DNA of 35,391 nucleotides from a virus (Duplodnaviria > Heunggongvirae > Uroviricota > Caudoviricetes). A program made the position numbers and the translations under genes. Below, one piece after another: positions 1-10,793 of this stretch. The notes below the pieces were generated by a model. It was not told the origin of the DNA. It saw only the letters and a program-made list of their open reading frames with translations, and searched no databases. Within the stretch, counting starts at the first letter, position 1. Every line of letters begins with the position of its first letter. The DNA lies in the IMG/VR virus record IMGVR_UViG_2778261298_000003; one strand, 5' to 3'.

Positions 1-1284
1 TTACAGACTTCTGGAAGGTTGCGCAGCTCTTACAACACGCGGTTGATCTTCCGCGGCGTCTTCCAGCGCACTTAAATCACGGTCTTTCACTTCTGGCATT
101 TTCAGCGCAGAGATTAAACCAATCACTGAATATGCCATGATCATAATGGCGATCGGATACCAGGATTCCGTCATGGTGCAGAAAATACCCGCCAGGATAG
201 GACCAAAACCGGAAGCGATAAGACCACCAATTTCTTTAGAAATAGCCATCCGGGTAAAGCGGTTTTTACAGCCGAACATTTCTGCCATGGTAATATTTTC
301 CAGAGCAAATAATCCCAGCACCGCACAGTTATGAATCACAATCAGTGCAACCATAATGGTGCTCGGGGCATAGCTTTTATCTACGATGATAGAAAGCATT
401 GGCCATGCCAGCACAATCGCGGAGGTATTCATAATAATATACGGGATCCGGCGACCAATTTTATCGGATAACCAACCAAGGAACGGAATGGTCATAAAGC
501 CGAGAATCGAACTGATCATCAATGCATCTGTTGGAATTGCTTTGTTAAACAATAACGTCTGCACTAAATAGCCCGCAAGGAAAGTCTGAATTAAACCTGA
601 GTTACCCGCCTGACCAAAACGCAGCCCTGTTGCCAGCCAGAAGGATTTGCTCTGGAACATGCTACCAGCAGGTGCAGGTTTTGCTGTCGGTTGGTTGCTG
701 TCGTTAACCTTCTCAAAAACCGGGCTTTCTTTCAGATTCATACGCAACCAGATAGCAAAGACCATCACGACAACGCTCGCCAGGAACGGTATACGCCATC
801 CCCACGCCAGCAGTTCCTCTTTACTGAGAATGAAGAACATAAAGGCCCAGATTGCCGTTGCGCTTAAAGTTCCGCAGTTAGTTCCCATAGCCACAAATGA
901 GGAGATAATTCCGCGCTTACCTTTTGGCGCATATTCCGCCAGCATCGTACCGGCACCGGAAATTTCCGCACCTGCACCCAATCCCTGAATAATACGCAGC
1001 GTCACCAGCAAGATGGGGGCAAAAACACCAATCTGTGCATAGGTCGGTAACACACCAATTAAGGTGGTACAGATCCCCATCATGGTGATGGTAATAAAGA
1101 GCACTTTTTTACGCCCTATTCTGTCGCCCATTTTGCCGAAAATAAATGCTCCGACAATACGCGCCACATAACCTGCACCGTAGGTTCCCATTGCCAGAAT
1201 TAACGCCATTGCCGTTGATGATTCAGGAAAAAATATTTCATGAAACACTAACGCTGCGCCGAGCGAATATAACTGGAAATCCAT
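1..1284 (-). CDS. ydfJ: MFS-family transporter (YdfJ-like), probably N-terminally truncated at the prophage junction
   Basis: 427-aa multi-helix hydrophobic protein with the MFS loop motif G-x-x-x-D-R-x-G-R-K (GKMGDRIGRKK) at residues ~50-60, earlier than in full-length family members; ATG at 1282-1284. Confidence 0.8.
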   Translation of the reverse strand: MDFQLYSLGAALVFHEIFFPESSTAMALILAMGTYGAGYVARIVGAFIFGKMGDRIGRKKVLFITITMMGICTTLIGVLPTYAQIGVFAPILLVTLRIIQGLGAGAEISGAGTMLAEYAPKGKRGIISSFVAMGTNCGTLSATAIWAFMFFILSKEELLAWGWRIPFLASVVVMVFAIWLRMNLKESPVFEKVNDSNQPTAKPAPAGSMFQSKSFWLATGLRFGQAGNSGLIQTFLAGYLVQTLLFNKAIPTDALMISSILGFMTIPFLGWLSDKIGRRIPYIIMNTSAIVLAWPMLSIIVDKSYAPSTIMVALIVIHNCAVLGLFALENITMAEMFGCKNRFTRMAISKEIGGLIASGFGPILAGIFCTMTESWYPIAIMIMAYSVIGLISALKMPEVKDRDLSALEDAAEDQPRVVRAAQPSRSL

Positions 1285-1887
1285 AATTCACAGGTGTTTT
1301 TTCCCATCCTGTGGTTTCCTTGGCGTTTTCTAGGTTTTTTCAGATAGTTGCATTTTTTAAAAAGCATCCTAAGTTCGATCTCAGTGTCTATCTGGGGCCT
1401 ATTTCTGTCCCATATATGCCCCAAAAAAACTCCCCAACAGATAAGTAGTTTTTTCATGGATTTATGCGTAAAATCAAGAACGGCTGGAAATCATTCAATA
1501 CTCACACTATCGAAAAATTTACCAGCCAACCGCAGCACGTTCTTGCATAAGGCGTGTCTGCGGTTTTTCAACTATTCAGATACATCACTCCCATCACATT
1601 CATTCCTCCGCATCAAAGGCATATAGGCTATATCACCTTGATATTTTTCTTTTTCAGATAAAAACTGTTATCTATGTATACTTTTAAACCCAATCCGTGT
1701 AGAGTCTCTGCATAAGATAGTTTGCAGTTGCCGCTTCAGCTTGCGCCATAAACCGCCTGATTTTTGCTGCCACCTGTTAGCATTCCTGTATACCTGAAAC
1801 GACAATGTTTATCTACGAACTTTAAGAACACCCAAGATAAAAATTGTCAACTATATCATATATAACACATTACTAATTCGAGGCTAT

Positions 1888-2001
1888 ATGAACAGCATAC
1901 TGATAATCACTTCTCTCCTTATCATATTCAGCATTTTTAGTCATGCCCTAATAAAATTAGGGATTGGCATATCCAATAACCCAGACAAAACCGATGTATA
2001 A
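1888..2001 (+). CDS. Candidate small hydrophobic protein (37 aa, [37 protein letters not shown])
   Basis: ATG preceded by GAGG about 5 nt upstream; single predicted transmembrane helix; TAA stop at 1999-2001. Not in the ORF track (below length cutoff). Confidence 0.3.
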
Positions 2002-2069
2002 GTCAACATATCCTGAATCAGACATACAATATCGCAATGAAACTCAATAATATTTTAAGGAATATCTTC

Positions 2070-2303
2070 ATGAAATCAAAAGACACCCTAAAGTGGTTCC
2101 CTGCGCAGCTTCCTGAAGTAAGAATTATCCTAGGGGATGCTGTAGTGGAAGTAGCAAAACAGGGAAGACCTATCAATACCAGAACATTGCTTGATTACAT
2201 TGAAGGAAACATAAAGAAAAAATCATGGCTGGATAACAAAGAATTATTACAAACAGCGATATCAGTTCTTAAAGACAACCAAAATTTAAATGGTAAAATG
2301 TAA
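2070..2303 (+). CDS. ydfK: YdfK/YnaE-family prophage protein (cold-shock-induced family in K-12)
   Basis: ORF-track frame 2037..2303; start re-set to the internal ATG at 2070 (MKSKDTLKWFPAQLPEV...), which has an AAGGAA SD 8 nt upstream; 77 aa. Confidence 0.75.
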   Translation: MKSKDTLKWFPAQLPEVRIILGDAVVEVAKQGRPINTRTLLDYIEGNIKKKSWLDNKELLQTAISVLKDNQNLNGKM

Positions 2304-2619
2304 TATAATAAACTTACTTTTTTATCATTTTTCCACTTTAACAACATTTTGCTCCACTTTTCCACGATCAAACAACTTGAAATCTGGTTAAAATAACACG
2401 CAACACTATTCTTCTTCCTTGAGTCCGCCCGGAACTCGAAAAACAAACCGAGTTAAAGCCATTTTTCACAAAATCGATTTTGGGTCTCACCAAAATTACG
2501 GGGTTGCATACGCATTCGTTTATTTTCGAACGTGTACATACAAATATGCACAAAAATAATAAAAATTATTTTCTGAGATGCATTATGATATGAACACCAA
2601 TTTCGTATAGAGTCTCACT

Positions 2620-3210
2620 ATGTCTCGAATTTTTGCTTACTGTCGGATATCAACGCTGGATCAGACCATCGAAAATCAACGCCGGGAAATCGAAAGTGCA
2701 GGTTTTAAAATCAAACCTCAGCAAATAATCGAAGAACACATTAGCGGCTCAGCAGCAACCAGTGAGCGTCCTGGTTTTAACCGGTTGCTTGCTCGCCTGA
2801 AATGTGGTGATCAATTGATTGTGACAAAACTGGATCGCCTTGGTTGTAATGCAATGGATATCAGGAAAACAGTGGAACAACTGACCGAAACAGGTATCAG
2901 AGTGCATTGCTTAGCATTGGGGGGCATTGACCTGACCAGTCCAACAGGAAAAATGATGATGCACGTAATTTCAGCAGTCGCTGAATTTGAACGAGACCTT
3001 TTACTTGAACGCACTCATTCCGGGATAGTAAGAGCCCGCGGCGCAGGGAAACGTTTTGGTCGACCACCTGTGTTAAATGAAGAACAGAAACAGGTGGTAT
3101 TCGAACGAATTAAGTCAGGTGTAAGTATAAGTGCCATTGCCCGGGAATTCAAAACCTCGCGGCAAACCATTTTAAGAGCCAAAGCAAAACTTCAGACACC
3201 TGACATATAA
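2620..3210 (+). CDS. pinQ: Serine recombinase, DNA invertase of the Pin/Gin/Hin/Cin family
   Basis: 196 aa; N-terminal catalytic domain with active-site Ser in the YCRISTLDQ context; C-terminal helix-turn-helix; ATG start verified. Confidence 0.9.
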
Positions 3211-3307
3211 AAAATAATCTCGGTGTGAGATGCTTTACGTCTTCCAAGCCCCCTTCCTTGCCGTAAATGGAAAGATACATCTAATTATAGAATTTATATG
3301 TTTTACC

Positions 3308-3883
3308 CTACGGCAGTGCTGGCCATTCAATATCCTGTGCAGTTGACGTATCAACACGGTTCAGCAACACCCGATACTTTTTCCAGGCTTCCAGCAATGA
3401 GGTTTCTTCCTCCGTTGCGATTTCCAGATCTACAGCATCCTGAAGTGGTGCAATATGCTCACTGGCTACCTGCATCAGGCTGTTTTTTGTTTCTTCCGCC
3501 TCTCGGATCCGGAACAGTTTTTCTGCTTCTGCATCTTTCACCCAGGCTGTGCCGTTCCACTTCTGAAACTCCCCTTCCGGCGATAACCAGGTAACATTTT
3601 CCGGTAACGGACCGAGTTCAGAAATAAATAACGCGTCCCCTGACGCTACGTCATAAACCGTTTTACCCCGATGGTCTTCAACGAGATGCCACGATGCCTT
3701 ATCACTGTTGAAAACAGCCACAAAGCCAGCAGGAATATCTGGTGGTGCAATATCGGTACTGTTTGCTGGCAGACCTGTATGAGGCGGAATATATGCGTCA
3801 CCTTCACCAATAAATTCATTAGTTCCAGCCAGCAGATTATAAATTTTTATGGTCCGTGGTTGTTCACTCATTCTGAATGCCAT
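3308..3883 (-). CDS. tfa: Tail fiber assembly protein (Tfa)
   Basis: 191 aa, lambda Tfa-like ([24 protein letters not shown]...); its ATG overlaps the stf stop. Confidence 0.9.
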
Positions 3884-6582
3884 TATGCAAGCCTCACAAT
3901 ATAGTTAAATGCGATGTTTTTGACGGTGTTTTCCGCGTTACCAGCAGCGTTAACGGTGATGGTGTGTCCATGTGAACCAATCGCAACGGAGTGCGTATGA
4001 GCACCAATACCGACAGTATGCGCGTGTGCACCTGCAGATGCTGCTGTGCCGGACAGTGAATGGCTATGATTACCATCTGTACTGGTATTCGCTAACCACC
4101 CCGTAGACATACCTACTGAGCCTTGTACACCCCAGGTATTTTGACCTGAGCTTGTATAACCATATTGATAAGTATCTTTAAAAACACTGGGGTTAAATCG
4201 ACGGCCATCTCTATGGCTGTGATTACCAGCTGCATTCGTGCTGCCACTTAAACTATGGGTATGCGCACCAGTGTTATTCGTGGATTTAGTGCCGTAATCA
4301 AACGACGATGTGGTTTTCGTCCCCAAATCCGTACTGGATGCGCTGGCGCTGTGGGTATGCGATTTAATGCCGTCCTGTTCCTGAGACAATACGGCCCGAC
4401 CACTGGCAGGTTTGCCCTTAATCGTCCAGCCACGCATATCAGGGATCACGCCTGACGGATAAGCGGCTGCAAGTTTCGGGTATGCAGATTTGTCAAAAGT
4501 CTGCCCCTGCATCAGGGCATAGCCAGACGGAACGGTATCTGATGGCCACGGGATTGGTGCGCCAGGCGGATAAAACTGCTCTGATGGCGTATAGAGTGAA
4601 TAAACTGTACCGTCCGTTAACCCTTCCGGCTTATTAGCAGAATATGCTGGTGACGTATGAATCGTCACGCTGGCATTACTGGTATAATCCCATTGAATAT
4701 TTACACCAGTCGCATAATTTCCGATTGCAACGTAAATATCGTAAGTATCACCAGATGTATTGACCCAGGCAAAATTTGTAAACCCTGTCGATGTGCGCTG
4801 CCATAAAGCACCAGTAATCCCCTTCGGATTACCATTACCTGCACGTAAAACAAGTTCAGATATACCTGCCTGTTGAGGTGACCCCACGTTAAATCCAGCG
4901 CCACCAATCAACGTAATTGAAACAACAGAACTCGCCTGTGGCATGGTTACCGTTGCTAATTTGAACCAACCAGCACCACCGCTGAATGACATTGTTGTTG
5001 AGTTAAGCGTACCAATATCTTTCGGCGTCAGTGTTATATCCGCTGAAAGCGCCTTACCATTCACCTTACGGGCAGAAGGTACCCGACCATTCGCATTGTC
5101 ATTAGCTGCTTTCACTGCTTTCGGTGTCGCAGCAAGCGTTTCAGATGTGCTGTTGGTTGCACTACTGAGCTGGACAATTCCTTTTTGTGCTGTCGTAGCG
5201 TCCTGTGCGGTGTATTTCCCGTTAGCCAGGTCATACGCGGCCTTAACGGCTTTTGGCGTTGCCGCCTGTGACTCGGAAGTGCTGTTAGTCGCACTGCTGA
5301 GCTGAACTATCCCTTTCTGTGCTGTCGTTGCATCCTGTGCGGTGTATTTCCCGTTAGCCAGGTCATACGCGGCCTTAACGGCTTTTGGCGTTGCCGCCTG
5401 TGACTCGGAAGTGCTGTTGGTCGCACTGCTGAGCTGTACTATCCCCTTTTTCGTCGTGCTCGCATCCTCAAGCGCCACGGCGGATGCAATATCCTCTGCC
5501 CGTTTTGCTGCTGTCTCGGCGCGCGTTGCCGCGGATTCCGCCGTACTTTTGCTCTGTGCTGCCGCTGCCGCACTGCCAGCAGCCTCTGTCGCCTTCGTGG
5601 ATGCCGTCGTGGCGCTGCCCCTCGCTGCTGACGCCTGTCTGGTCGCCTCATCTTTTGAAGCAGACGCAGATGATGCAGCCGCTGTTTTTGAGCCTGCCGC
5701 AGCCGAGGCGCTCTGTCCCGCTGCCGTTTCAGAAGACCTGGCGTTCGTCTCGGACGTTTTTGCCGCCTTCGCGGAATTTCCTGCCGCCGTTGCCGAGGAA
5801 GCGGCACTACTGGCGCTTGATGATGCGTTCGTTTCTGATGATTTTGCCGCCTCTTTTGAAGCCGACGCATCCCGTGCTGAAGTGGCTGCTTCTGACGCTT
5901 TCGTAGTCGCGGTGGATGCAGAAGTGGCTGCTGATTGTTGTGACGCTGCCGCATTCGTTTCTGACGTTTTCGCCGCACCGGCACTGGTAGCCGCCGCGCT
6001 TTTTGAGGACTCTGCAGCGGCAGCACTTTTTAATGCTTCAGTGGCCTTTGTTGATGCCGTTCCTGCGCTGGAAGACGCTGACTGAGCCGACGAAGCAGCC
6101 TGTCCGGCTGACGTGCTGGCTGCGCGTGCTGAGCCTGCAGCATCAGTCGCATGGGTTGCCGCCTCACGGGCTGATGTGCTGGCATCGCTGGCTGACTTCT
6201 TCGCGGCTGCCGTGTTCTGTGCCACCGCGGACGCGTTACGCGCCACCTCTTCCACCATCAGTTCAAAACGGCGCAGTGCCTCAGGACGGGCATCATCCTC
6301 CGTCATGGCACCGAGAAAATCATTCAGCGTACCGGGTCGGGAATCTTCATACACGGTGATGGTCCCGGCATGTGACGGCGGGAATCCTTCCACCAACAGA
6401 ATAACGCTGTACTGACCGTACTCAACGTCCATGCTGTAACGCCCGGCTTCATCCGGATTTTCTGAGGCCAGCGTGTTCACCACCACCGTGGTACTGTTAC
6501 GTTTTGCTTTCAGCTGGATTGTGCAGTTCTGTACCGGTTTTCCTGTGCCGTCTTTCAGTACACCTGAAATCTTTACTGCCAT
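3883..6582 (-). CDS. stf: Side tail fiber protein (Stf) with Ala/Ser/Thr-rich shaft, tandem 44-aa repeats and Gly/His-rich C-terminal region
   Basis: ORF-track frame to 6588 begins on GTG; the lambda-like N-terminus [20 protein letters not shown] starts at the ATG at 6580-6582; C-terminus ...[18 protein letters not shown] matches lambda Stf. Confidence 0.9.
5110..5460. repeat. Tandem direct repeat, 132-bp unit, about 2.5 copies, inside stf
   Basis: The string cctgtgcggtgtatttcccgttagccaggtcatacgcggccttaacggcttttggcgttgccgcctgtgactcggaagtgctgtt recurs 132 bp apart (from 5201 and 5333); encodes the repeated [15 protein letters not shown]...[27 protein letters not shown] motif. Confidence 0.75.
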
Positions 6583-6593
6583 ATTCACCCCAC

Positions 6594-6620
6594 AAAAAAG
6601 CCCGCCTGAACCGGCGGGCT
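6594..6620 (-). terminator. Rho-independent terminator-like hairpin between lom and stf
   Basis: GC stem gcccgcc/ggcgggc with a 6-nt loop, followed on the minus strand by a T-run (plus-strand aaaaaa at 6594-6599). Confidence 0.5.
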
Positions 6621-6646
6621 GTCATAACACTGTGTTACCTGGCTAA

Positions 6647-7246
6647 TCAGAATTTATAACCGACACCCACGATGAAACCGTCAGTGCGCCAGTCGCCACT
6701 GCCGGAACCTTCATAAGCGACATCAACGGCCACGGATTCGGTCGGGTTAAACTGCACGCCAGCCCCCCACGCCAGAGACGTGTTGCTGTGGCGACCGTCA
6801 TCACTTCCGATCAGCACATCGTGCGTTTTCCCCGTATTGTCGGTCACCTGCAGATAATCCCCGGAGAAAGTCGACACACGGCTGTAAGCCACACCCGCCA
6901 TCGCATACGCGCTGAACCATTCATTCACGCGCACAGACGGCCCCGCCATCACGCTGAACCAGCGGTTACGCACGGAATCTTCATGCCAGCGGGTATCGCT
7001 GTAATGCGTTTTTTGCTCATCTTCAGCGTTGGCATAACTGAATGACGTAATCAGCCCCAGCGTGTCCGTAAACTCATAACGGTATTTCACGTTAATCCCG
7101 TTCAGATTATCGCTGCCGGGAGCGTTCGTACGGGCATGAAGATACCCTGCGCTCAGTGTGGCCTGCTGCTCAGACGCCCATGCAGGCGCACCGGATACGG
7201 CCAGACAGATGGCTGCGGACAAAATGGCTGCACAAACTTTACGCAT
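6647..7246 (-). CDS. lom: Lom outer-membrane beta-barrel protein (Ail/Lom/PagC family)
   Basis: 199 aa with signal peptide [24 protein letters not shown] and C-terminal ...[10 protein letters not shown]; ATG verified. Confidence 0.9.
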
Positions 7247-7267
7247 AATTACCTCTCGCTTTTCTGC

Positions 7268-7296
7268 AATAAAAAAGGCGCCATTTCTGGCGCCCG
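7268..7296 (-). terminator. Rho-independent terminator-like hairpin between J and lom
   Basis: Stem ggcgcca/tggcgcc with loop tttc, flanked by an A-run on the plus strand (T-run on the minus strand). Confidence 0.5.
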
Positions 7297-7313
7297 TATA
7301 TGGGTTATAAAAT

Positions 7314-10300
7314 TCAGCTGATACTGATGCCTGCGGTGGCTTTCTTCATCACCACAACCAGCAAATCGCTGATACTTGCTGTGGGATACCAGTCATTTAC
7401 CAGCCATGCTGACACCGAAAACTCCAGCGTCATGTGGCCGTGACCAGCTGGCATATCAATAACACCACTGTAAATCAGCGTATTATCCAGCGCGGTACGG
7501 TTATAAATTTCAGCACCATTTTTCTTCACTATCAGGCGGCATGACGAATAAATATCGTTATTCTCCCGCTCATGTTTAGCGCCGCAGAATGCCACCGCCG
7601 GAATAACAATTTGCCTGTCAAAAGGCTGATCGTCATAAATCCTGACGGTAATGGTCCCTGATGGCCACCGCTCCGGTGCCCGGGAGTCCCGCGGGAAAGC
7701 CTTACCCACTGTTTTGACAATATCGCCTTCAATCTGGTTGGCTGACAGTTTCCCTTTAATCTGACAGTTCTCATTTATCGTAACGTTGTTGAGCGTCCCG
7801 GAGTTCGCATTCACACTGCCACTGATATCTGCATTTTTAGCGGTCAGCTTTCCGTCCGGTGTCAGGGAAAATGCAGGAGGATTACCGCCGCTGGTAATGG
7901 TGGGAGCCGTCAGATATTTCAGGAACACTTCATTCATAAATATCTGATCACCCTGACCAACAAACATCGGTTTTGTGTTGCCATTTGCAGGATTAATCAT
8001 CGCAATCCTGTCTGCCGCCAGCAGCACCTGACTCTGCATGCCGTCGGGGGTGTTCTCAATACCGGCACCGATACCCGCGATATAAAGGCGTCCGTCCTGC
8101 ATCTGCTGCAGCTTCACAGCCCACATGCTGTTCAGATTATTATTTGTATCAACCTGAACCTTCTGTATCTGCTGGATCGCTGCACTCTGGTCTTCCAGTT
8201 TCTTATTGACGGTCTGTGTGATTTCATTGCTGACATCCGTAATGGATGTCCTGATTTCAGCCAGGTCAGGCGCAAGCTGACCGTTATCAATCTGCGTCCA
8301 CAGCTCCTGAGCCAGATGGGTTTTCCCTATCTCGCCTTTGAAAAAATCCAGATAGCCGGATGCGTCATCACTCGGCTGACCAACAGCCTCCACGAATGCC
8401 GATTTGCCAACGGTGTTCACACTGCGAACGTAAAAATAATAATTATGGCCCGGCCTGATATTGATACTGGCGGCTATCCAGTACAGCGCCGTGCCAAGAT
8501 AGCGTGCTGTGGTTTCAACCTGCCTGATATCCGCAATCCGCTTTTCCGAGAACCAGAACTCAAACTGTACCGTCGGATCATAAACCGCAAGATGCGGCGT
8601 GGCGGTTATCTGAAAATAGCCCGGCGTCAGCTCAATCCGCGACGGCGCTGCCGGTGCGGCAATCCGGAACGATACCGACGCCGGATCGCCCTGCTGCCCC
8701 CACGCATTTACTGCCCGGACTGTCAGCCTGTAGTTCCCCAGAGCCAGTTGTGTGAAGCGGTAAGTGGTTTCCGTCGTCCGGGCCGTGCTGACCAGCCGCT
8801 CACTGCCGTCATCCGCTGTTACGGTCAGGCGAAGCATGAAACTCACGCCCTTCACCACCTTCGGCGTGTCCCAGCGGGCCAGTACCTGATACTCCCCGCT
8901 GTCTGCGGTGACTTCGGCAGTCAGGTGCTGCACTGCTGGCGGCGTGACACCATTCACCGTGCCGCTCTGGTCGCCGTCAAAGTGCGCCCCGTTATCCACG
9001 ATAGCTTCTTTTTCCGGTACATGCTGCACGGCGGTGATGGCATACGTGCCGTCGTCGTTCTCACGGATACTCACGCAGCGGAACAGGCGCTGGCGCAGCG
9101 TCGGCAGCTTCAGCCCCCATACGCTGTATCCGGCAACGCCGTCAGGAACACGGCTCACTTTTACCTTCACGCCGTCGGTGACGGACTGGACCTCCACGCT
9201 GACCGGATTGCCACTTCCGTCAACCAGGCTTATCAGCGTGGTACCGGAGGATGGCAGCGTGATTTCACGGTCGAGCGTCAGCGTCCGGGTCTGGCTGTTC
9301 ACCGCCAGCACGCGCCCGCCGGTGCTGATCCCCGCATAGTCATCATCGCAGATTTCAATGACATCGCCCGGCACATGGCGAAGCCCTTCCGCACCCACGC
9401 TGAAGTCCACGGTCTGCGTTTCCAGTAGTTCCGTTTTAATCAGCCACAGCCCGGCGCGGTGCGCCTGCCCCCGGCTGGTACAGCCAAAGGCATCCATCTT
9501 CGTGACGTTACGACCGTAACGGAGAATGGCCTGCGTATCTTCAACAAGCTCTGTCGCCGTCTCCCAGCCGTTATCCGGGTCAATCCAGTTCACCTCAACG
9601 GCATTATGACGGTCCTTCAGGGCACTGAAGCTGTAGCGGAACGGCGCGCCATCATCCGGCATCACCACATTACTGCAGTTATAGGTCCACACCTTATCCG
9701 ACGGTCGGTCCTGCACGAACGTCAGCGTCTGCCCGTTCCATACCGGCATACAGCGCATCGCCGAGCAGAAATCACTGAGAACATCCCACGCCTTGCGCTG
9801 TGTGGTCAGCCAGGCATTACAGGTGATGCGCGGCTCCGTGCCGCCAAAACCGTCCGGCACCGACTGATCGCAATGCTGGCCGATGACATACAGCGCCCAT
9901 TTGTCCACATCCGCCGCACCGAGACGCTTCCCCATGCCGTAGCGCGGATGGGTCAGCATATCCCACAGACACCAGGCCATGTTGTTGCTGTATGCTGGCT
10001 TAAACGTTCCGTCCCAGATACCGCTGTATTGCCGCGTCTGCGGGTTATAGTTCGACGGCACCTGCAGAATGCGCCCGCGAAGATGATAATTACGGCTCAC
10101 CTGCTGGCTGCCGAACTGTTCCGAGTCCACCTGCACGCCGACCAGTGCCGTGTTCGGGTAGCACTGTTTCACATCGATGATTTCGGTGTATGACGACCAG
10201 AGCGTTTTGTTCTGCAGCTGGTCTGTGGTGCTGTCCGGCGTCATTCTGCGCATCCGGATATTAAACGGGCGCGGCGGCAGGTTATCCACCACCACCGAGG

Positions 10301-10793
10301 CCAGATACTGCGAGGTGGTTTTGCCCTTAATGGTGATGTCTTTTTCCGTCACCCAGCCACCATTACGCTGTATCTGAACCAGCAGGCGAACTTCCGACGG
10401 ATTCCGGTCCCCCTTTGAGGTGGTTTCCACCAGTGCCTGCACACCGAAGGTAAAGCGCAGTCGGTCGATGTTTGCCGACGTGATGGCGCGGGTGATCGGC
10501 GTGTCGTATTTCACTTCCGTACCCAACACCGTCTCGGAGCCGGAGGATTCAAATCCCTCCGGCGGAGTCTGCTCCTGCTCACCAGCCCGGAACACCACCG
10601 TGACACCGGCGATGTTGGTATTCCCATCACTGTCCAGCACCGGCGTACTGTTCAGCAGCACGCTTTTTAATCCATCCACCGGACCTTCAATCGGCCCTTC
10701 ACTGATGGCATCAATCACACTCAGCAACTGCGTGGACTTCAGGTTGTCCTTCGCTTCGCGCGGGGTATGCCCCTTACTGCTTCCTTTACCCAT
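7314..10793 (-). CDS. J: Tail tip / host-specificity protein J (central fibre)
   Basis: 1159 aa, lambda J-like throughout with fibronectin-III-like middle region; ATG verified. Confidence 0.95.

Follow-up and report, generated by a model that had tools for sequence, protein, structure and literature searches.

A tandem array of Phage_fiber_2 repeats that varies in copy number in the side tail fibre gene of lambdoid E. coli prophages

Results

The stf locus and the domain layout of its product

The window, by which we mean the whole 35,391-nucleotide stretch of viral DNA analysed (IMG/VR record IMGVR_UViG_2778261298_000003), carries a lambdoid prophage with a lambda-like tail cluster, J-lom-stf-tfa, adjoining ydfJ. 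All four open reading frames lie on the minus strand in the order found in lambda, and each matches the corresponding Pfam family. The gene for the central tail tip or host specificity protein, J, is at 7314..10793 (Pfam GpJ domains), and lom, encoding an Ail/Lom outer membrane protein, is at 6647..7246 (PF06316, E = 4e-125), directly upstream of stf as in lambda. The side tail fibre gene, stf, occupies 3883..6582 and encodes 899 residues from an ATG at 6582, with an in-frame GTG at 6588. It is followed by tfa, the gene for the tail fibre assembly chaperone (3308..3883; PF02413, E = 3e-44), the homologues of which are annotated tfaQ. A resolvase/invertase gene adjoins tfa. We looked for a Pin-type invertible segment and did not find convincing inverted repeats around stf or tfa.

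The stf product gives Pfam matches to phage_tail_N (239.5 bits), Phage_fiber_2 (183.1 bits, in three stretches) and Collar (46 bits), and relatives in RefSeq carry the annotation "prophage tail fiber N-terminal domain-containing protein". The N-terminal domain, PfN, which is the part expected to attach to the tail, is encoded at 6181..6582 on the minus strand (PF08400, E = 1e-71); its score lies far above the cutoff of 26.6 bits and identifies a lambda-type Stf N-terminus, and Stf residues 1–94 match PDB 9e7m (deposited as "Tail fiber protein") with E = 1.2e-51. Next comes a low-complexity, Ala/Ser-rich shaft segment at 5449..6180 (minus strand), defined by protein alignment and called the "PCoil" region after PMC3368898. 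In the protein alignment this segment is 87 residues shorter here than in most relatives, and the deletion junction, at ~5662–5667, is flanked by 11-nt direct repeats, GCATCATCTGC. Beyond the Phage_fiber_2 repeats, a 166-residue segment without a Pfam match (4588..5085, minus strand) leads to the Collar domain. The C-terminal receptor-binding tip at 3886..4614 (minus strand) contains the Collar domain and His-rich repeats (PF07484, PF03335) and is homologous to the needle and tip of T4 gp37, the structure of which (PDB 2xgf) aligns to Stf residues 657–899 with E = 3.9e-85. The Caudo_TAP family protein encoded immediately downstream of stf is Tfa, and the tip is predicted to need a chaperone of this Tfa/gp38 type.

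The layout of Stf predicted from these matches is therefore PfN, PCoil, n internal Phage_fiber_2 (Pf2) units, one terminal Pf2 unit, the distal module and the gp37-like tip, where n is 2 here and 0 in both lambda and K-12 StfR. That lambda Stf has one copy in all, as an earlier note on this DNA had stated, is borne out by lambda orf-401, which shows a single GIVQLSS motif at residue 362. For K-12 StfR we had expected many Pf2 units beforehand, and only one was found.

The 132-nt array

Tandem Repeats Finder reports a repeat at 5147–5451 with a period of 132 nt, 2.3 copies, 92% matches and a score of 531. A separate repeat search found three copies at a spacing of 132 nt, an array far beyond chance, and the translation of stf (minus strand, 6582 to 3883) holds three copies of the module. 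By the profile match, each 132-nt unit is one repeat of the Pfam family Phage_fiber_2 (PF03406): the match has E = 5.6e-55 against a gathering score of 22 bits, and the best of its three stretches spans profile positions 1–41 of 42.

Unit 1 (5317..5448, residues 379–422) and unit 2 (5185..5316, residues 423–466), both on the minus strand and each 132 nt or 44 residues long, are identical at 126 of 132 nucleotides and at all 44 residues. Their six differences, at unit positions 3, 12, 30, 117, 120 and 132, are all synonymous and in the third codon position, giving dS of ~0.22 and dN of 0. Unit 1 is of the internal type. Unit 3 (5053..5184, minus strand, residues 467–510) is of the terminal type, joins the distal module and resembles the single unit of lambda and Mu. 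It matches unit 1 at 78 and unit 2 at 76 of the 132 nucleotides, with 29 of 44 residues identical; conservation is confined to the first 27 codons (25/27 residues), 18 of which differ synonymously, and after ...KAVKAA it passes into the next module. Thus, the array consists of two near-identical units and one old, diverged terminal unit. The earlier note had placed three near-perfect 132-bp DNA repeats at 5110–5460. There are indeed three modules and the repeat is real in that span, but near-identity at the DNA level holds for units 1 and 2 only, and the span stops 57 nt short of the end of unit 3 and extends 12 nt past the other end of the array.

With head-to-tail units of 132 nt (44 codons) and the high identity of units 1 and 2, the array has the form of a VNTR. 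A recent triplication was considered and rejected, since dS between units 1 and 2 is ~0.22, unit 3 is synonymously saturated and the array is common to many strains. Many independent genomes contain these three units too, down to the six diagnostic differences, so that an assembly artefact in this window, the possibility that the earlier note had raised against itself, does not account for the array. The three-unit array is an old and widespread allele.

Copy number among related loci

The 166-residue segment downstream of the repeats (4588..5085) provides a copy-number-neutral probe for related loci. This repeat-free domain is at least 98% identical across arrays of one to four units, and the 79 IMG/VR loci that share it, many of them draft assemblies in which repeats can collapse, have 1 unit in 4 cases, 2 in 19, 3 in 54 and 4 in 2. 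Two-unit alleles occur in at least 11 complete E. coli genomes as single-piece matches of 764 nt, and four-unit alleles in at least four (H10, AR_0081, QA-1986 83 and NCTC9088). Roughly 1,100 complete genomes carry the region, and in a spread sample of full-coverage matches the span was that of three units in 16 rows and of two units in 2. A protein-database search with the three-unit segment was rejected as an estimate of frequency, the best 120 matches being mostly "partial" sequences and biased towards three-unit matches.

Copy number thus differs among otherwise homologous loci, with 1, 2, 3 or 4 units before the same downstream domain, as is characteristic of a VNTR; the invariance that the earlier note had named as fatal to its proposal is not seen. 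Three units is the modal and clearly predominant allele, the array is largely stable, and rates of change may be low. We found nothing specific in the open-access literature on either the 132-bp array or Pf2 copy-number polymorphism.

Chimeric units at the junctions

At each of the six sites that separate units 1 and 2, a base can be scored as that of unit 1 (a) or of unit 2 (b), so that each unit can be written as a six-letter string. In two-unit alleles the first unit reads aabbbb, aaabbb or aaaaab; that is, it is always unit 1 at its 5' end and unit 2 at its 3' end, in three breakpoint classes. In four-unit alleles the extra, second unit reads bbaaaa or bbbaaa, always with the reciprocal polarity, unit 2 at the 5' end and unit 1 at the 3' end, in two classes. 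A diverged lineage adds a chimera of unit 3 (5') and unit 2 (3') in locus L071 and, in the one-unit allele of locus L060, a chimera of unit 1 (5') and unit 3 (3'). Every recombinant unit that could be classified has the polarity expected from unequal crossover or slippage, and none has the reverse. The two-unit allele of strain WAT consists of aaaaaa followed by unit 3, without a chimera; to arise by exchange, this allele would require a breakpoint within a 5-nt stretch of homology, and alternatively it could be an ancestral state.

Two near-identical strains, GF47 (two units, aaabbb) and GF50 (three units), can be compared directly. Apart from exactly one unit, by which they differ, the right-hand 20.4 kb is the same in both, and the left-hand 20.2 kb has 7 differing positions. 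The variable copy number, the polarity of the chimeras and this pair uphold the proposal of the earlier note that the array expands and contracts by slippage or recombination to give fibre-length variants, and we conclude with considerable confidence that E. coli prophages have repeatedly gained or lost one unit through recombination between the copies.

Discussion

Gain and loss of copies is the expected behaviour of repeats of this kind. We consider it very probable that the array is a tandem run of 44-residue Pf2 structural modules of a trimeric lambdoid Stf, which is changed by unequal recombination or slippage. The Pf2 modules lie between the Ala/Ser-rich shaft and the distal part of the fibre, which ends in the gp37-like tip. 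At 132 nt and 95% identity, the internal units offer long tracts of homology on which unequal homologous recombination or replication slippage can act, the likely agent being RecA, a phage recombinase or slippage itself. Whole units have repeatedly been lost or gained in natural E. coli prophage populations, leaving in-frame alleles of 1 to 4 units. By analogy with T4 gp34 and gp12 at the level of the motif, each unit may add one fibrous domain to the length or flexibility of the shaft. The variation in host range or adsorption that the earlier note had put forward as possible is hypothetical, and the receptor-binding tip is unchanged with copy number. An AlphaFold2 monomer model of the repeat region (mean pLDDT 39.5, an all-helix guess) was unusable.

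Two other origins for the differences in copy number have to be set against exchange within the array. The real array might be fixed at three units, with the other alleles being artefacts of assembly in which the 132-bp repeat was collapsed or expanded. Database Stf proteins are overwhelmingly "partial" and at contig ends, which indicates that short-read assemblies struggle in stf, and a collapsed repeat would likewise yield a unit 1/unit 2 chimera. However, the two- and four-unit alleles are found in assemblies labelled as complete genomes from unrelated projects and sources, and an identical aaabbb allele is present in at least seven complete genomes, from platypus, rock-wallaby, human and chicken meat. 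The same chimeric aaabbb unit is also found in GF43 within a more diverged context; the expansion alleles, with their reciprocal chimeras and, in H10, private SNPs, are not products of collapse; and the unit is shorter than a typical read and carries six diagnostic SNPs. We thus find an artefactual origin very improbable. Modular exchange among the tail fibre genes of different phages, by the classical mosaicism at conserved Pf2 joints, would instead make the one- to four-unit arrays separate inherited architectures. The terminal Pf2 unit is clearly a mosaic joint: the same downstream domain is found behind P2 gpH-like N-termini, the same upstream part is found with other distal modules in phages mEp460_ev081, PhiR68_2 and SPF_0923, and engineered lambda–P2 chimeras were joined at R393, just past the Pf2 unit (PMC11338833). 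The WAT allele without a chimera also fits such exchange, as does unit 2 of the window's lineage, which has 5 of its 6 diagnostic bases in common with unit 2 of the diverged lineage and indicates that inter-allelic exchange or gene conversion has occurred. Against this, breakpoints of several classes are found between flanks that are otherwise identical, contractions and expansions alike obey the polarity rule, and GF47 and GF50 differ within near-identical 40-kb surroundings; exchange within the array is the simpler explanation for all of these observations. As the source of the copy-number differences, modular exchange is therefore unlikely.

There is the further matter of whether copy number is a neutral length polymorphism or an adaptive, fast-switching "contingency" trait that tunes reach to the depth of O-antigen or capsule. 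The recurrence of independent events, the second length-variable segment in the same Stf shaft and the selection of tail-fibre tandem duplications during coevolution in another phage (PMC6365445) would suit the adaptive alternative. On the other hand, three units dominate, dS of ~0.22 has built up across units without homogenisation or loss, and many carriers are prophages that are possibly defective, such as PCP06021 with an IS3 element in J; we hold a fast-switching trait to be most unlikely. A related and more elaborate idea, which seems to us rather unlikely, is that the Stf shaft is a two-part length "rheostat", made up of the Pf2 array, changing in steps of 44 residues, and the Ala/Ser-rich segment, changing by slippage at short direct repeats. 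Prophage recombinases might speed up recurrent in-frame changes in both, and selection on these changes would fit reach to O-antigen or capsule depth, as an adsorption contingency mechanism that leaves the tip untouched.

As a feature, the array is of a known and ordinary kind, and its consequences are modest. Short-read assemblies break, or may mis-size, stf, and care is needed with allele calls and with "partial" annotations. Unequal exchange in a prophage gene has left a clean natural record in the reciprocal chimeric units, and the Pf2 array marks natural, in-frame, tolerated points of insertion and deletion in a lambda-type side fibre, which should be useful to those who engineer Stf chimeras for DNA delivery. 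Should adsorption to hosts that differ in surface layer prove to depend on fibre length, this locus would offer a simple case of receptor-binding fibres that are tuned in length.

Comparison with known systems

Variable in-frame tandem copies upstream of the receptor-binding part of a fibre have a parallel in Enterococcus phage EfV12-phi1, whose tail fibre gene acquired in-frame tandem duplications as phage and host coevolved (Wandro et al. 2019, PMC6365445). There the unit is 1.8 kb, the duplications were de novo under experimental selection and an effect on infectivity was demonstrated, whereas the unit here is 132 bp and the natural polymorphism is seen in genomes. Serial units in a fibre shaft are also known as the "mixed alpha-beta fibrous domain" repeats of T4 gp34 and gp12 (Granell et al. 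2017, PMC5537660). By eye the two motifs are alike (G-IVQLSS... here, G-VIKVAT...VSPKNLKWIA in gp34): a conserved Gly opens a short beta-strand, and further along Ser/Thr-Pro caps a helix that belongs to a three-helix bundle on the trimer axis. PF03406 gave no match to T4 gp34 or gp37 (gp34 at E of 0.1 or better), and hhalign of Pf2 unit alignments against gp34 repeats gave a probability of 29% (P = 5.7e-4) over only 21 columns, so that we treat the relation as a possible analogy only.

Phage Mu gpS (PDB 5yvq, 8ju3 and 9ki1) contains one clear Pf2 unit, KGLVQLTSATDSPSETLAATAKAVKIAMDNANARL (E = 2e-9 for 5yvq), but this fibre belongs to a myovirus and has other domains on either side of its single unit. 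The collagen-like fibres of EHEC prophages, in the relevant passages of Ghosh et al. (2012, PMC3368898), share the PF03406 family and the PfN-PCoil-Pf2 layout with the protein described here, and the length of their PCoil segment varies between alleles. They differ in having collagen triple-helix segments, a PfC C-terminus and, in the EPclB architecture, a single Pf2; Pf2 copy-number polymorphism is not described in those passages. Lambda Stf (Ur-lambda; orf-401 and orf-314 in lambda PaPa), with its Tfa, is also among the closest systems. Against the three Pf2 units here lambda has a single one, its segment from Pf2 to the tip is different, and no more than 58% of the stf gene aligns to lambda, at 87% identity. 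The order J-lom-stf-tfa is nevertheless the same, and the two fibres have in common the PF08400 N-terminus, the Ala/Ser-rich shaft, the Pf2 motif, the gp37-like C-terminal tip and the Tfa chaperone.

The side tail fibre gene

The repeat region (5053–5448) lies within a 2,700-nt minus-strand ORF running from 6582 to 3883 and encoding 899 aa. In Pfam, this protein has the prophage tail-fibre N-terminal domain PF08400 (239.5 bits), three Phage_fiber_2 (Pf2) repeats, PF03406 (183.1 bits in total), a Collar domain and a weak Phage_fiber match. Comparison with solved structures matched aa 1–94 to PDB 9e7m (E 1e-51), a structure deposited under the name ‘Tail fiber protein’, and aa 657–899 to the receptor-binding tip of T4 gp37, 2xgf (E 4e-85). 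The same strand carries its neighbours tfa (PF02413), lom (PF06316) and J. At the left end of the window are an MFS transporter ORF (1–1284, minus strand) and a Pin-like resolvase/invertase gene (2620–3210, plus strand; PF00239 and HTH_7), annotated in the closest RefSeq relatives as ydfJ and pinQ, respectively; in the remainder, consecutive minus-strand ORFs follow the layout of a lambda-type head and tail operon. The domain and structure matches, the neighbouring genes and the pinQ/ydfJ annotation together identify the element as a lambdoid prophage and the ORF as its side tail fibre gene, stf. By every sequence criterion tested, the protein belongs to the lambda Stf family and to PF03406.

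The resolvase/invertase gene lies ~ 100 nt past tfa on the opposite strand (compare pinQ/pinR in K-12), and no inverted repeats that could delimit an invertible tail-fibre segment turned up within 1–7300. The repeats and the Collar domain are separated by a 166-aa segment (4588–5085, minus strand; Stf aa 500–665) that has no Pfam match; its conservation is at least 98% in the best 80 of 294 IMG/VR stretches encoding a relative. Antisense to the Ala/Ser-rich region and the repeats of stf lie two long plus-strand ORFs, 5342–6085 (247 aa) and 4943–5305 (120 aa), much as antisense orf206b is annotated inside orf-401 in the lambda reference record; rather than being genes, they most likely reflect the GC-rich composition of Ala/Ser codons.

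Structure of the repeat array

At the protein level, Stf contains three 44-aa units, encoded on the minus strand at 5448–5317, 5316–5185 and 5184–5053. Tandem Repeats Finder reports 5147–5451 with a period of 132, 2.3 copies, 92% matches and a score of 531. The repeat is thus present where the earlier note placed it (5110–5460), with the ends slightly off and the strand unstated. The note's description of a near-perfect, threefold DNA repeat fits units 1 and 2, which differ at 6 of 132 nt, but not unit 3, which is identical to unit 1 at 78 of 132. The six differences (unit positions 3, 12, 30, 117, 120 and 132) are all synonymous third-position changes, and the two peptides are identical. With dS ~ 0.22 and dN 0 between these units, the array is therefore no fresh duplication; the Pf2 peptide is under purifying selection. 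Unit 3 retains 25 of the 27 N-terminal residues, with 18 of those codons differing synonymously, and has a different sequence beyond. It resembles the sole Pf2 unit of lambda and of Mu, and its sequence marks it as an old, diverged terminal unit.

A second common stf lineage (for example the unit succession U06-U10-U08, among loci L006–L023) has units 1 and 2 differing at ~ 23 sites, compared with 6 in the window. Five of the six unit-2-specific bases of the window are common to the unit 2 of that lineage, and the interior of unit 2 is that of unit 1. This pattern suggests that the window's units once exchanged sequence by gene conversion, or that an allele was imported, rather than that a duplication occurred recently.

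Copy number among relatives

IMG/VR was probed with the 166-aa domain 3′ of the array and the units were then counted upstream at each locus, which avoids a bias towards three units. Three units were found at 54 of the 79 loci, two at 19, one at 4 and four at 2. Because many IMG/VR contigs are draft assemblies, complete E. coli genomes were queried with the two-unit and four-unit alleles. The former matched 11 genomes in a single ungapped 764-nt piece and the latter four (H10, AR_0081, QA-1986 83 and NCTC9088) in one piece of 1,027–1,028 nt. In a spread sample of matches to the window's three-unit region, the full-coverage rows comprised 16 three-unit and 2 two-unit spans, and two more rows had spans that would fit one unit. 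Among sequenced phages in GenBank's phage collection, mEp460_ev081, PhiR68_2 and SPF_0923 have two units and PhiR34_1 has one. The modal state is three units, with minority alleles of one, two and four; the copy number, for which the earlier note had proposed a comparison among homologous prophages, is not invariant. The closest Stf homologues (P0001–P0120, among the protein matches listed) almost all carry the label ‘partial’, many on contigs of 1–2 kb, so that short-read assemblies evidently often break stf.

Polarity of the chimeric units

In a three-unit array, exchange between units 1 and 2, whether by unequal crossover or by slippage, would contract or expand the array by a whole unit. 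A contracted allele would retain a single chimera, unit-1 type (a) at its 5′ end and unit-2 type (b) at its 3′ end, and an expanded allele would gain an extra 5′-b/3′-a chimera between the intact units 1 and 2. The six sites separating units 1 and 2 provide a directional test. Four classes of first unit occur among the two-unit alleles: aabbbb (IMG/VR loci L005 and L030), aaabbb (GF47 and GF43; seven complete genomes in all at 100%, GF47 included), aaaaab (2017.09.02CC, ARS-C301 and OkiPb01697) and aaaaaa (strain WAT). With the intact units written A, B and C, the four-unit allele is A-bbaaaa-B-C in H10 and A-bbbaaa-B-C in AR_0081 and NCTC9088. In the diverged lineage (~ 23 sites), two-unit alleles have unit-1-specific bases at the start and unit-2-specific bases at the end, the four-unit allele L071 has a unit3-5′/unit2-3′ chimera and the one-unit allele L060 a unit1-5′/unit3-3′ chimera. 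All classifiable recombinant units have the predicted polarity and none is reversed. The breakpoint classes among these chimeras imply at least three independent contractions and at least two independent expansions in the window's lineage. The WAT allele, the sole case lacking a chimera, could be the ancestral state or a microhomology event.

GF47 (two units) and GF50 (three) are both chicken-meat strains from Switzerland, with assembly accessions near each other. Across the 40.7-kb stf region, the 132-bp unit and seven substitutions separate them; the substitutions all fall in the left 20.2 kb, and the two strains have the same sequence over the right 20.4 kb. This pair, known from assemblies alone, points to a very recent unit change, an assembly difference being a formal alternative. 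Six of the seven substitutions fall within 136 bp of a ‘phage tail protein’ gene (positions 8329–8464 of L085/L086, the retrieved loci), a patch that looks like gene conversion with another prophage as donor, or like an artefact of polishing. The earlier note's proposal that the repeats expand and contract by recombination or slippage is supported by the alleles of one to four units, the polarity of the chimeras and the GF47/GF50 pair, and the repeat behaves as a coding VNTR.

Other variation in the fibre

Compared with most relatives (SE11, WAT, GF47), the window's Stf is 87 aa (261 nt) shorter in the Ala/Ser-rich shaft (junction ~ 5662–5667, minus strand, aa 306/307), and no complete genome in the collection gave a one-piece match to the window's stf at its length. 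An 11-nt direct repeat, GCATCATCTGC, borders the deleted segment, which suggests that the deletion arose by slippage. In PCP06021, 61 aa are missing from Stf at this position, and the fibre thus has, in the Ala/Ser-rich segment, a second part of variable length, independent of the array. The PCP06021 stf is the most similar to the window's (99.9%); an IS3-family element interrupts J in that prophage (L001, 153–2275), which is therefore tail-defective despite an intact stf.

The terminal Pf2 unit (5053–5184) is also a mosaic junction, followed in natural sequences by alternative distal modules; it is also where engineered lambda-P2 fibre chimeras were fused, at R393 (PMC11338833). The same Stf N-terminal part precedes another distal module (…DNAEKRLQKDQNGADIPGKD…) in mEp460_ev081, PhiR68_2 and SPF_0923, and P2 gpH-like N-termini precede the same downstream domain in some loci (among L080–L084 and L097–L100).

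Function of the unit and comparison with known fibres

The part names PfN, PCoil and Pf2 are those of Ghosh et al. (PMC3368898), who describe Pf2 as poorly understood in structure and function. In the solved T4 gp34/gp12 repeats a conserved Gly starts a beta-strand and Ser/Thr-Pro caps an axial helix (PMC5537660). By eye, Pf2 follows the same motif logic; the profile comparison is weak, no connection was found via Pfam and the monomer AlphaFold model failed, and we therefore only infer that each unit may form one of a series of fibrous domains, by which the trimeric shaft gains length or flexibility. The receptor-binding tip (aa 657–899) is the same whatever the copy number, making a direct change of receptor specificity unlikely; an effect on fibre reach or adsorption kinetics is possible.

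Copy-number change is expected of tandem repeats of such size and identity, and we found no description of this polymorphism in the searchable literature. We regard the array as a newly documented, well-supported example of a familiar type of feature, of modest significance. Selected in-frame tandem duplications within a tail fibre gene provide a precedent (PMC6365445). Lambda orf-401 has one unit, as the earlier note stated, and so has K-12 StfR, whereas the window's Stf has three.
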